Of a stretch of DNA of 64,000 nt, positions 55,205 through 60,022 are shown one piece after another; the stretch's first letter is position 1, and the number at the start of each line of letters is the position of its first letter. The stretch is from Escherichia coli (lineage in GTDB: Bacteria > Pseudomonadota > Gammaproteobacteria > Enterobacterales > Enterobacteriaceae), in assembly GCF_030013205.1 (NCBI RefSeq), contig NZ_CP122648.1; one strand, given 5' to 3'. The notes under the pieces were generated by a model. The model saw only the letters and a list, made by a program, of their open reading frames with translations, ran no database searches and was not told where the DNA came from. The position numbers and the translations under genes are program-made.

Positions 55205-55303
55205 CGTGCTACGCCTGTCAGGCCTATTCGACTCATGCAATATATTGAATTTGCATAGTTTTGTGGGGCGAATAAGGCGTTCACGCCGCATCCGGCGTGA
55301 ACA
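55205..55303. repeat. BIME/REP elements between cho and nadE
   Basis: AGGCCTGACAGGCGTAGC-like and AAGGCGTTCACGCCGCATCCGGCG REP motifs; the 64-aa ORF 55179..55373 here is probably spurious. Confidence 0.55.
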
Positions 55304-55341: not shown

Positions 55342-56169
55342 TTACTTTTTCCAGAAATCATCGAAAACGGTAATTGGCGGACGGCGTTTATGTTCGGTTT
55401 TCAGATACCAGTTCTCTATTGTTCTGGCGACCTGTTCAGGTAGGTTTTTCCCTTCCAGATAGTCGTCGATATTGTCATAGGTCACGCCGAGTGCCACTTC
55501 ATCTGGCAGAGAAGGGCGATCATCTTCCAGATCGGCCGTTGGGGCTTTCTTATAAAGGTGTTCCGGGCAACCTAATGCCGCCAGTAACTGTTTACCCTGG
55601 CGTTTGTTGAGACGATACAGCGGATTAATATCCGTACCGCCGTCACCATATTTAGTGAAGAATCCGGTAATGGCTTCTGCTGCATGATCGGTGCCCACCA
55701 CGACACCGCTGGTCATACCCGCAATGCTATATTGTGCTTTCATCCGCTCACGCGCTTTTTCATTGCCACGGACAAAATCGCTCAGTTCAATGCCTGCTTC
55801 CCGCAATGCCTGCTCGCTGGCCAATACCGCGCCCTTGATATTAACGGTTAATACGCGATCCGGTTGAATAAAGGCAATGGCATCCTGGCAATCTTGTTCG
55901 TCGGCCTGAACACCATAGGGCAGGCGTACGGCAATAAATTGCAGCGATTCGTTGCCGGTTTCCTGGCGCAGCTCATTAATCGCCATCTGGCACAGCTTTC
56001 CGGCAAGCGTGGAGTCCTGACCGCCGCTGATCCCGAGCACCAGTGATTTAATGAACGGATAAGTTTGCAGGTAGCTTTTCAGAAAATCGACACTACGACG
56101 AATTTCCTCTTCAGCATTAATCTGCGGTTTTGCGCCCAGCGCCTTTATTATTTGTTGTTGCAATGTCAT
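55342..56169 (-). CDS. nadE: NH3-dependent NAD+ synthetase NadE, 275 aa
   Basis: ORF 55342..56169; PP-loop SGGQDS. Confidence 0.95.
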
Positions 56170-56370
56170 TGAACCCCTCCAGACAGAAAAGACAAAACTT
56201 CCTTAAAGCTAACCCGTTGCTACTGAAACGACAAGCGACAGCGGGCTGAATGGTGGTTAAAACGTCATACAGGAATCCTCTGAAAGCGGAGCCGTTTCGT
56301 TCACGGGCTTGAAAAAGCGCCCAATGTATTCCAGGCTTATCTAACACGCTGATAAACAAGAGGACGGAAT

Positions 56371-56709
56371 ATGAACAAGAATATGGCAGGAATTCTGAGT
56401 GCAGCGGCGGTATTAACCATGCTGGCGGGTTGTACGGCTTATGATCGTACCAAAGACCAGTTTGTACAGCCTGTGGTGAAAGACGTCAAAAAAGGCATGA
56501 GCCGGGCGCAGGTTGCACAAATTGCAGGTAAACCTTCGTCTGAAGTGAGCATGATCCATGCTCGTGGTACTTGCCAGACCTACATCCTGGGTCAACGTGA
56601 TGGTAAAGCAGAAACCTACTTTGTCGCGTTAGATGATACCGGACATGTCATCAACTCCGGTTATCAGACCTGTGCTGAATACGACACTGATCCACAGGCT
56701 GCGAAGTAA
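56371..56709 (+). CDS. osmE: Osmotically inducible lipoprotein OsmE, 112 aa
   Basis: ORF 56371..56709; lipobox LAGC. Confidence 0.9.
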
Positions 56710-56742
56710 TCACTTCGCCTGAAAGCTTGAGTTACAACGGAA

Positions 56743-56768
56743 ACCGGCCATTGTGCCGGTTTTTTTTG
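56743..56768 (+). terminator. Rho-independent terminator downstream of osmE
   Basis: ACCGGC-CATTGT-GCCGGT followed by a T9 run. Confidence 0.75.
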
Positions 56769-56839
56769 GCCTGAGTTCTTAATTATCTTCGCGAATTATT
56801 TGCCCGAAATGTGAAGAGGGTCATAACCGCAGGTCAAGG

Positions 56840-56869
56840 AGAGACAATTTATAAGGTCAAAGAAATACT
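56840..56869 (+). promoter_or_regulatory. Direct repeat AGGTCAA (x2, 23-bp spacing) in the chb regulatory region; candidate regulator half-sites
   Basis: AGGTCAA at 56840-56846 and 56863-56869; the chb promoter is known to bind NagC, CRP and ChbR, but I cannot assign the motif to one of them. Confidence 0.25.
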
Positions 56870-57007
56870 ATTGCTCAGGTCTATACCGTATACTCCTTTC
56901 AGCCACAAAAAAAGTCATGTTGGTTTCGCAAGTTACCCAGAGCATGGAAGCAGGTTAAGGCTTGCGGAGTGTCTGGCTGACAGATAATCGTCGATGAGGG
57001 CAGTTTT

Positions 57008-57328
57008 ATGGAAAAGAAACACATTTATCTGTTTTGTTCTGCGGGCATGTCTACCTCTTTACTGGTATCAAAAATGCGCGCACAGGCAGAAAAATATGAA
57101 GTTCCGGTCATTATTGAAGCATTTCCGGAAACACTGGCTGGTGAAAAAGGTCAGAATGCCGATGTCGTGTTATTAGGGCCGCAGATTGCTTATATATTGC
57201 CCGAAATCCAGCGTTTGTTACCCAACAAACCGGTTGAAGTAATTGACTCGCTGCTTTATGGCAAAGTCGATGGTTTAGGCGTGCTTAAGGCTGCGGTTGC
57301 AGCGATTAAAAAAGCCGCAGCAAATTAA
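57008..57328 (+). CDS. chbB: Chitobiose PTS enzyme IIB ChbB, 106 aa
   Basis: ORF 57008..57328; phosphocysteine in FCSAGMSTS. Confidence 0.95.
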
Positions 57329-57342
57329 TTTATTTTAAATTT

Positions 57343-57355
57343 CCCCGTCAAAGAG
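57343..57355 (+). promoter_or_regulatory. ChiX sRNA pairing (decoy) site in the chbB-chbC spacer
   Basis: CCCCGTCAAAGAG is complementary to the remembered ChiX seed CUCUUUGACGGG. Confidence 0.55.
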
Positions 57356-57373
57356 TTATTTCATAAATCAATA

Positions 57374-57398
57374 CCGCAATATTTAAATTGCGGTTTTT
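57374..57398 (+). terminator. Intercistronic hairpin plus T-run between chbB and chbC
   Basis: CCGCAAT-ATTTAA-ATTGCGG followed by TTTTT, 15 bp upstream of the chbC start. Confidence 0.5.
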
Positions 57399-57412
57399 AA
57401 GGGTATTTTTCT

Positions 57413-58771
57413 ATGAGTAATGTTATTGCATCGCTTGAAAAGGTACTCCTCCCTTTTGCAGTTAAAATAGGAAAGCAGCCACACGTTAATGCAATCAAAA
57501 ATGGCTTTATTCGCTTAATGCCGTTAACCCTTGCGGGGGCCATGTTTGTATTAATTAACAACGTTTTTCTAAGCTTTGGGGAGGGGTCGTTTTTTTATTC
57601 CTTAGGTATTCGCCTGGATGCCTCAACCATTGAAACACTTAATGGTCTGAAAGGTATTGGCGGCAACGTATATAACGGAACATTAGGGATAATGTCTTTA
57701 ATGGCACCGTTCTTTATTGGCATGGCACTGGCAGAAGAGCGTAAAGTCGATGCGCTGGCGGCTGGGTTGTTATCCGTTGCAGCATTTATGACCGTCACCC
57801 CTTATAGTGTCGGTGAGGCCTATGCGGTTGGCGCAAACTGGTTAGGTGGGGCGAATATCATCTCCGGGATTATTATTGGCCTGGTGGTGGCAGAAATGTT
57901 TACCTTTATTGTCCACCGCAATTGGGTCATTAAATTGCCCGACAGCGTACCTGCTTCAGTATCGCGTTCCTTCTCGGCATTAATCCCCGGCTTTATTATT
58001 CTTTCCGTGATGGGGATTATTGCCTGGGCGTTGAATACCTGGGGTACCAATTTCCATCAGATCATTATGGATACCATCTCAACCCCACTGGCATCGTTGG
58101 GTAGCGTGGTGGGATGGGCCTATGTGATCTTTGTTCCACTGCTCTGGTTCTTCGGTATTCATGGCGCGCTGGCGCTGACCGCACTGGACAACGGCATTAT
58201 GACGCCGTGGGCGCTGGAAAACATCGCGACCTATCAGCAATATGGTTCCGTCGAAGCGGCGTTGGCAGCCGGTAAGACCTTCCATATCTGGGCCAAGCCG
58301 ATGCTGGACTCCTTTATTTTCCTCGGTGGCAGTGGTGCGACTTTGGGTCTGATCCTGGCTATCTTTATCGCTTCTCGCCGTGCTGATTATCGTCAGGTGG
58401 CAAAACTGGCGCTGCCGTCCGGCATCTTCCAGATTAACGAACCGATTCTGTTTGGTCTGCCAATTATCATGAACCCGGTGATGTTTATTCCGTTTGTACT
58501 GGTACAACCGATTCTGGCGGCAATCACCCTCGCAGCTTACTACATGGGCATTATTCCTCCGGTGACCAATATTGCACCGTGGACCATGCCAACCGGTCTG
58601 GGAGCCTTCTTTAACACCAACGGTAGCGTCGCCGCATTGCTGGTCGCACTCTTCAACCTTGGTATCGCAACGTTAATTTATCTGCCCTTTGTTGTGGTCG
58701 CTAACAAAGCACAAAACGCGATTGATAAAGAAGAGAGCGAAGAAGATATCGCTAACGCCCTGAAATTTTAA
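57413..58771 (+). CDS. chbC: Chitobiose PTS enzyme IIC ChbC, 452 aa
   Basis: ORF 57413..58771; polytopic membrane protein. Confidence 0.95.
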
Positions 58772-58821
58772 TCGATGCCGGTACGGGTAATCGTGCCGGT
58801 AAGAAAAGAGAGGAACGATGT

Positions 58822-59172
58822 ATGATGGATCTCGATAACATTCCCGATACGCAAACAGAAGCTGAAGAGCTGGAAGAAGTGGTGATGGGACTTATCATCA
58901 ACTCCGGACAAGCGCGCAGCCTGGCGTATGCCGCACTGAAACAGGCGAAGCAGGGCGATTTTGCCGCAGCAAAAGCCATGATGGATCAGTCACGGATGGC
59001 ATTGAATGAAGCGCATCTGGTACAGACGAAACTGATTGAAGGCGATGCGGGCGAAGGTAAGATGAAAGTGAGTCTGGTGCTGGTCCACGCTCAGGATCAT
59101 TTAATGACGTCCATGCTTGCGCGTGAACTGATTACCGAATTAATTGAGCTTCATGAAAAACTGAAGGCATAA
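58822..59172 (+). CDS. chbA: Chitobiose PTS enzyme IIA ChbA, 116 aa
   Basis: ORF 58822..59172. Confidence 0.95.
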
Positions 59173-59179
59173 GGAGTCG

Positions 59180-60022
59180 ATGATGCAGCCAGTGATTAAC
59201 GCGCCGGAAATTGCCACTGCCCGAGAACAGCAGTTGTTTAATGGCAAAAACTTCCATGTGTTTATCTACAACAAAACTGAGAGTATCAGCGGACTGCATC
59301 AGCACGACTATTATGAATTTACTCTGGTATTAACCGGGCGTTATTTCCAGGAGATTAACGGTAAGCGCGTGTTACTGGAACGGGGCGATTTTGTTTTTAT
59401 TCCGTTAGGTTCGCACCATCAAAGTTTTTATGAGTTTGGTGCCACGCGCATATTGAATGTTGGGATCAGTAAACGCTTTTTTGAGCAGCATTACCTGCCG
59501 TTGTTGCCTTATTGCTTTGTCGCTTCGCAGGTATACCGGACCAATAACGCTTTTCTCACCTATGTGGAAACAGTGATTTCTTCATTGAATTTCCGCGAAA
59601 CAGGGCTGGAAGAGTTTGTTGAGATGGTTACTTTTTATGTCATTAACCGTTTACGTCATTACCGCGAAGAACAGGTGATTGATGATGTACCGCAGTGGCT
59701 GAAAAGTACGGTAGAAAAGATGCATGATAAAGAGCAGTTTAGTGAGTCGGCACTGGAGAATATGGTGACGTTGTCAGCCAAATCACAGGAATATTTGACG
59801 CGAGCGACTCAACGATATTATGGCAAAACGCCAATGCAGATTATTAATGAAATCCGTATTAATTTTGCCAAAAAACAACTGGAAATGACCAACTATTCAG
59901 TGACGGATATTGCGTTTGAGGCCGGTTATAGTAGCCCGAGTTTGTTTATTAAAACGTTTAAGAAATTAACGTCCTTTACGCCTAAGAGCTATCGTAAGAA
60001 ATTGACTGAATTTAATCAGTAA
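59180..60022 (+). CDS. chbR: AraC-family dual regulator ChbR, 280 aa
   Basis: ORF 59180..60022; C-terminal AraC HTH. Confidence 0.95.

Follow-up and report, generated by a model that had tools for sequence, protein, structure and literature searches.

The window, by which we mean the whole 64,000-nt stretch of Escherichia coli DNA analysed here, contains the E. coli chbBCARFG locus. A 701-nt query (56900–57600) has a match in 5414 of the 5426 complete E. coli genomes, the annotated features beneath the match being chbB and chbC, with chbB at 100% identity to annotated E. coli chbB. Between chbB and chbC lies a short spacer, in which a sequence-only reading had picked out a ChiX-complementary stretch, a pair of 7-bp arms and a T5 run ahead of the chbC start, all of which are in place. 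The features discussed in this work are listed below in window coordinates.

56743–56768: osmE intrinsic terminator, CCGGCCATTGTGCCGG followed by T8, with strong Term-seq 3′ ends.
57008–57328, plus strand: chbB (PTS chitobiose IIB), 106 aa, from the open reading frame list.
57329–57412, plus strand: chbB-chbC spacer, 84 nt, 26% GC, from the sequence.
57329–57342, plus strand: TTTATTTTAAATTT, a U/A-rich tract that precedes the ChiX site on its 5′ side, from the sequence.
57344–57355, plus strand: CCCGTCAAAGAG, the core of the ChiX-complementary site, which pairs with nt 47–58 of the sRNA, from the 12-mer complement and duplex prediction.
57358–57364, plus strand: AUUUCAU, a second block that pairs with nt 38–44 of ChiX beyond a 2×2 internal loop, from duplex prediction.
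57373–57394, plus strand: stem-loop ACCGCAAT / ATTTAA / ATTGCGGT, 8 bp with a 6-nt loop, about −10 kcal/mol, from folding and covariation.
57394–57398, plus strand: T5 run, its first T able to pair with A57373, from the sequence.
57399–57403, plus strand: chbC Shine–Dalgarno (SD) sequence AAGGG, from the sequence.
57408 (K-12 1821219), plus strand (K-12 minus strand): peak of a Rho-dependent termination region, from Adams et al. 2021, supplementary file 2.
57413–58771, plus strand: chbC (PTS chitobiose IIC), 452 aa, ATG at 57413, from the open reading frame list and the annotated match.
57439–57450, plus strand: chbC codons 9–13, AAAGGUACUCCU, predicted to pair with the SD region 57400–57410 in minimum free energy and ensemble folds.

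Window position p corresponds to K-12 position 1878627 − p on the minus strand. Across the spacer, one base distinguishes the window from K-12 MG1655, C57343 being T in K-12. This position is polymorphic, with C here (TTTCCCCGTC) and T in K-12 and several other Escherichia (TTTTCCCGTC), and lies outside the ChiX duplex. Swine ETEC/O139-type strains show 100% identity to the window.

For the pairing analysis we used the ChiX sequence of the annotated ncRNA of NC_000913 (507204–507287), confirmed as Rfam RF00368 sroB. Complementarity to the ChiX seed CUCUUUGACGGG is contiguous over 12 bp in the chbB-chbC spacer, with a further 7 bp beyond. The sequence-only reading had assigned the 13-mer CCCCGTCAAAGAG at 57343–57355 to the site; 12 of these nucleotides (57344–57355) are indeed Watson–Crick complementary to ChiX, but C57343 faces ChiX C59. 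Duplex prediction, proposed in that reading as a check, returned the 12 bp together with the 7 bp at 57358–57364. No 12-mer other than CCCGTCAAAGAG is complementary to ChiX anywhere in the 64-kb window, both strands considered, and the spacer yields the best ChiX duplex among 3198 scanned segments (−28.7, against a mean of −12.3 and an sd of 3.0). We assembled 80 chbC loci, one genome per species, from Escherichia, Citrobacter, Salmonella, Enterobacter, Klebsiella, Raoultella, Kosakonia, Buttiauxella, Cedecea, Proteus and other genera. The ChiX site is present in 72 of the 80 enterobacterial spacers (exact in 52, near-exact in 20) and absent from eight, namely six Kosakonia loci and loci L080 and L081. 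The second block shows conservation, as T[TA]ATTTCA, across Escherichia, Citrobacter, Salmonella, Enterobacter and Klebsiella, and a T-rich run precedes the ChiX site in essentially all orthologues among the spacers compared; the U/A-rich tract at 57329–57342 is a possible Hfq contact.

This site is the published decoy of the chbBC intergenic region and was thus already known. The region is the earliest bacterial sRNA sponge, or trap-mRNA, to be described, which pairs with ChiX and destabilises it, relieving the repression of chiP (Figueroa-Bossi et al. 2009 Genes Dev; Overgaard et al. 2009 Mol Microbiol). In a genomic library screen for ChiX silencers all recovered clones are reported to contain the chbB-chbC spacer, with no others obtained, and the chb-ChiX pair has been detected in vivo by both RIL-seq and iRIL-seq. 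Pairing on chb is reported to alter ChiX's 3′ terminator region, so that the sRNA becomes susceptible to PNPase. The locus is the one of the 2009 studies, with complementarity to the ChiX seed, and the decoy site differs in nothing; C for T at 57343 in the window strain lies just outside the duplex. The proposal that chb mRNA carries a ChiX-titrating site is borne out by complementarity, by conservation and by the published decoy. In the fold of ChiX, G58 falls in the terminator stem, and since the chb site pairs up to G58, the sequence fits the published account of ChiX decay.

The decoy shares its ChiX seed with the chiP target. The site at chiP, CGUCAAAGAGGA, overlaps the SD of that gene and its pairing is limited to ChiX nt 45–56, whereas the chb site pairs with nt 47–58 and 38–44, reaches the ChiX terminator stem and lies 49–69 nt upstream of the chbC AUG. 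At −69 to −49 it is too far upstream for a direct block of initiation. ChiX is reported to repress chbC as well, for which the corroboration is indirect. The chb locus further differs from chiP in having a conserved hairpin between the ChiX site and the ribosome-binding site (RBS). Among other sponges, SroC (from gltIJKL) and ChiZ (from the chiP 5′ UTR) resemble chbBC in being sRNA-sequestering sequences inside mRNAs of the same regulon. SroC and ChiZ are short stable RNAs freed by premature termination or processing, whereas for chbBC no discrete 3′ end is documented at the hairpin and the U-tract that follows it is unconserved.

The second element of the spacer is this hairpin. Its 7-bp arms, CCGCAAT at 57374–57380 and ATTGCGG at 57387–57393, are separated by a 6-nt loop, and an A57373–T57394 pair extends the stem to 8 bp, so that four unpaired T are left; the base of the stem is GC-rich, with four GC pairs among the eight. 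The hairpin forms with a pair probability of 1.0 in our folds, chbC coding sequence included, and the isolated spacer fold has a z-score of −2.07. As a bare pattern it is not beyond chance, with 4 terminator-like sites found in a 3-kb region against 3.2 expected from shuffles; it is covariation that shows it to be real. In an alignment of 72 distinct chbB-chbC spacer sequences, 96% of the cells of the stem form standard pairs, and compensatory changes occur at five of the eight stem pairs, with double changes in 60 cells (for example CAAT/ATTG to TAAC/GTTA, TCATC/GATGA and CCG/CGG). None of 500 shuffles reached the covariation score, pairing fell to 24–56% in controls where the 3′ partner was slid by 1–3 columns, and the stem core was independently recovered by RNAalifold. 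The loop is free to vary, at 3–8 nt in length and without constraint on its sequence. G·U wobbles are found in 24 cells which on the opposite strand would be A·C mismatches, and the selected structure is therefore that of the sense chb mRNA. The hairpin is thus a genuine, conserved and covarying sense-strand RNA stem-loop.

The hairpin occurs in single copy per E. coli genome (5399 genomes), is unannotated and is unique in the window, and we therefore rejected an origin as a REP/BIME-like repeat. A search of Rfam gave no relevant match in 55500–59500 at E ≤ 10, and the spacer was likewise unmatched in a whole-window search at gathering scores. The only gathering-score match in the whole window is to the sRNA RF02751 ES036 (CssrF) at 55220–55262 on the minus strand (38.9 bits against a cut-off of 37.6), just past the 3′ end of nadE (55342–56169, minus strand). 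The literature surveyed on the chbBC decoy makes no mention of the hairpin, although Figueroa-Bossi 2009, Overgaard 2009 and Plumbridge 2014 may already describe it.

The hairpin holds a nearly constant position relative to the chbC RBS. The end of the stem is 5 nt from the AGG of the chbC SD in 67 of 78 spacers and 17–18 nt from the ATG in 72 of 78, while the linker to the ChiX site is variable and there is wide variation in how far the hairpin lies from the chbB stop. In six Kosakonia loci (L021, L022, L024, L025, L026 and L056, at about 1420–1500) the 5′ half of the spacer is unrelated and lacks the ChiX site, but the block comprising hairpin and RBS is almost unchanged. Taken together, the fixed SD spacing and the Kosakonia loci tie the hairpin to the chbC RBS rather than to ChiX or the chbB 3′ end, and the six loci show that it is independent of the ChiX site. 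The 3′ end of the stem is at about −19 from the chbC AUG, which is roughly the 5′ edge of the 30S footprint.

Larger rearrangements of the spacer were also seen. In Kosakonia oryziphila (L025), where the spacer is 220 nt and ends at 1500, an insertion of ~147 bp sits exactly between hairpin and SD. It has terminal inverted repeats of ~16 nt (GCCTGGCCCAGTAGGC ... GCCTAATGGGCCAGGC), is followed by a new AAAGG SD, and in its sequence looks like an insertion of the MITE type. As it separates the hairpin from the SD, the fixed spacing is not absolutely required. In Klebsiella and Raoultella (L033, L034, L043–L045, L047 and L049–L052) the spacers measure 147–169 nt, with about 65–85 extra nt between the chbB stop and the ChiX site that start with the conserved TTTTAAAACTCGA; in the K. 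oxytoca group the extra segment contains a long inverted repeat, GACATATTTCGGAT...GTCCGAAATA.

Folding of the chbC initiation region predicted a further structure, a helix between the SD region (57400–57410) and chbC codons 9–13. When chbC coding sequence is included, the unpaired probability of the SD is 0.11–0.25 in all contexts tried, and chbC has the lowest predicted SD accessibility among seven neighbouring genes. The SD is predicted to be occluded (unpaired probability below 0.4) in 70 of 79 orthologues; the helix is not predicted, for example, in Buttiauxella. Synonymous variation in chbC codons 8–15 is low across 80 species (Leu8 is CTT in 97%, Pro14 CCT in 95% and Val11 GTA in 92%), comparable later codons having entropies of 1.7–2.1 bits. 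In an alignment of 49 sequences, 86.7% of the helix cells are paired. There are few compensatory changes, and the pairing may mainly reflect conservation of the coding region, for which reason we regard this predicted SD-occluding helix as suggestive and unproven. Two other pairings were considered and rejected. An anti-SD pairing of CCC (57344–46) with GGG (57401–03) has a probability of 0.6 in the isolated spacer fold and 0.0 once chbC coding sequence is added, and is thus an artefact of fragment choice. A long-range pairing of ChiX to the hairpin and SD, from duplex prediction, was dismissed since the ChiX 5′ hairpin and the mRNA hairpin would both have to open.

The chbB-chbC junction also appears in genome-wide data on Rho. 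Adams et al. 2021 defined Rho-dependent regions by DirectRNA-seq with and without bicyclomycin (BCM), and both chiP (708624) and chb (1821219) are among them. The chb region has a Rho score of 4.28 (p = 6e-10), with upstream/downstream reads of 92/39 without BCM and 75/136 with BCM, the upstream window including the end of the highly expressed osmE. Its peak at 57408 is 5 nt upstream of the chbC ATG, at a coarse resolution of 800-nt windows. The text of that paper apparently does not discuss the chb region. Where a C-rich, G-poor and unstructured rut region might be expected upstream, the only stretch nearby with more C than G is 57310–57389 (GC skew −0.33), which is AU-rich at 26% GC. The entry shows a Rho-dependent limit on transcription into chbC in uninduced cells, in which ChiX is abundant; a Rho-sensitive junction fits a poorly translated chbC start rather than an intrinsic terminator. 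The sequence-only reading had suggested that chbB and chbC could be differentially expressed. The bicyclomycin-sensitive junction supports this, although by a Rho-dependent route rather than through an intrinsic hairpin, and Rho-dependent differential expression of the two genes accordingly appears plausible. On chiP, ChiX reportedly acts as a repressor with Rho-dependent polarity on chiPQ. The limitation at the chb junction would be analogous to this ChiX-dependent polarity.

We then considered what the hairpin might do in the mRNA. The sequence-only reading had called it terminator-like, which fits the stable stem-loop and its GC-rich base but has poor support beyond them, the T-run being unconserved, the plus strand giving no terminator call and Term-seq listing no 3′ end. 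A partial intrinsic terminator or attenuator in E. coli, formed by the hairpin and UUUUU, would end some transcripts after chbB and the decoy. In this way chbB would exceed chbCARFG, and a short decoy RNA would arise whose 3′ end is like that of an sRNA. A stem of 8 bp at −10 kcal/mol, GC-rich at its base and followed by 4–5 U, is compatible with this, as 4–5 U are able to give partial termination; TTTT(T) is kept in all Escherichia species and a few other lineages, and the sponges SroC and ChiZ exist as separate short RNAs that arise from premature termination or processing. Nonetheless, a consensus terminator scan (at least 5 T in 8) did not call the hairpin on the plus strand, and the U-tract is short beside those of the osmE (8 T) and ChiX (7 T) terminators. 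It is also lost in most genera, Salmonella, where the decoy was first characterised, included: the 8 nt after the stem hold 5 T in one of 77 orthologues and 4 T in 16, whereas the other 60 have no more than 3 T (38 with three, 16 with two and six with one). The tails read GGUAUUUAAGG in Salmonella and Citrobacter (where the E. coli spacer has GGUUUUUAAGG), GGCAUUUAAGG in Enterobacter and GGCAAUAAAGG in Buttiauxella. In the curated Term-seq 3′ ends of MG1655, from cells in LB at OD 0.4, LB at OD 2.0 and M63 glucose with the chb operon uninduced, no end is listed at K-12 1821200–1821299, the interval in which the putative terminator would end (1821227–1821233); the transcript ends anticipated at the U-tract are thus missing from these data, which argues weakly against termination as chb is very lowly expressed when uninduced. 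The same tables do list the osmE terminator, our positive control, at K-12 1821862/1821865. That terminator, whose loop differs in one base between the window (GTG) and K-12 (GCG), is likewise a stem-loop, GC-rich at its base and trailed by T residues, but it has 8 T and a strong Term-seq end where the chbBC hairpin has 4–5 T in E. coli, no more than 3 in most genera, and no mapped end. In addition, the change in read-through at the junction is bicyclomycin-sensitive and hence Rho-dependent. Scoring after d'Aubenton-Carafa was negative for the chbBC hairpin but also for the genuine terminator of ChiX, and was therefore discarded as evidence. We think that the hairpin is not a conserved or dedicated intrinsic terminator, the evidence being mostly against it, and a partial terminator in E. 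coli seems to us unlikely, although the 4–5 U after the stem in Escherichia may add a pause or slight termination.

Alternatively, once Rho has terminated transcription or RNase E has cut the RNA further downstream, the hairpin could act as a barrier to 3′-to-5′ exonucleases that fixes a stable 3′ end for an RNA of chbB and the decoy. Such barriers are known for many Rho-dependent transcripts; a Rho-dependent region is present at the junction, the hairpin is just 3′ of the decoy site, and its stem is conserved and stable while its loop sequence is free, as expected of a purely structural block. This explanation is a quite unlikely one in our estimation, given that Term-seq lists no stable 3′ end at the base of the hairpin, that a fixed spacing to the SD is unnecessary for the role and that −10 kcal/mol is modest for an exonuclease block. 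Finally, the perfection of the 7–8 bp inverted repeat, together with the finding that terminator-like sites are generically no commoner here than in shuffles, might suggest a DNA operator for a dimeric regulator or a chance repeat in an AT-rich spacer. We consider this highly improbable: the arms change in a compensatory way around a loop of 3–8 nt, the 24 G·U cells fit pairing in sense-strand RNA only, the slid controls collapse and shuffles give an expectation of 0.00 for the exact pattern.

Instead, the most likely role of the hairpin is a structural one, in the initiation region of chbC or in the stability of the mRNA. Stem-loops between cistrons (the malE-malF REP and engineered tunable intergenic regions) set differential stability or translation in operons. 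The chbBC hairpin resembles them in being independent of loop sequence and in lying between cistrons whose products, the soluble IIB and the membrane IIC, are required in unequal stoichiometry. Unlike REP/BIME repeats it is a lone, short and unique stem-loop, and a functional likeness to the malE-malF REP would be by analogy.

In our best reading, which we hold to be moderately probable, the spacer consists of two separable modules, the known decoy in its 5′ half (57329–57364) and a structured chbC initiation region in its 3′ half (57373–57412). The reading builds on spacer anatomy, complementarity, covariation, U-tract loss in orthologues and the independence of the hairpin from the ChiX site, all of which we observed; decoy function, ChiX decay and the Rho-sensitive region are taken from the literature. 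The 5′ module presents the U/A-rich tract followed by 12 and 7 bp of complementarity to ChiX nt 38–58. Pairing extends to G57/G58, where the terminator stem of ChiX begins; as the literature has it, ChiX is thereby exposed to 3′ exonuclease, so that chiP is de-repressed upon induction of chb. In the 3′ module, the conserved stem-loop stands 5 nt before the AGG, with the predicted helix of SD and codons 9–13 downstream. For the hairpin and the SD-occluding helix we infer their roles: the stem-loop may bound or stabilise the region where chbC translation starts, in which case it would insulate the RBS from the A/U-rich segment bound by ChiX and Hfq and could serve as a 3′-exonuclease stop or, after processing, as a protective 5′ hairpin. 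Poor initiation at chbC and Rho-dependent termination at the junction would together leave chbC below chbB in uninduced cells.

A more ambitious version, which we put forward only tentatively and think unlikely, is that the stem-loop and the predicted SD-occluding helix form a cis-regulatory module of the chbC initiation region that has not been described before. In uninduced cells this module would hold translation of chbC low and leave the gene accessible to Rho; it would also insulate chbC from, or transmit to it, the occupancy of the decoy by ChiX and Hfq, so setting the threshold for induction by chitobiose. Since Kosakonia keeps the hairpin without the ChiX site, such a module would predate the decoy or be independent of it.

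The decoy is the founding bacterial sRNA sponge, and its rediscovery is merely confirmatory. What our analysis adds is modest: a hairpin under clear structural selection that is positionally locked to the chbC RBS and independent of ChiX, at a chbB/chbC junction that coincides with a Rho-sensitive region. The outcome refines a well-studied circuit and introduces no novel type of system. Should the hairpin and the SD helix indeed tune chbC translation, they would help to explain how ChiX pairing ~50 nt upstream of the start could affect chbC, as well as the stoichiometry of the transporter subunits and the induction threshold.
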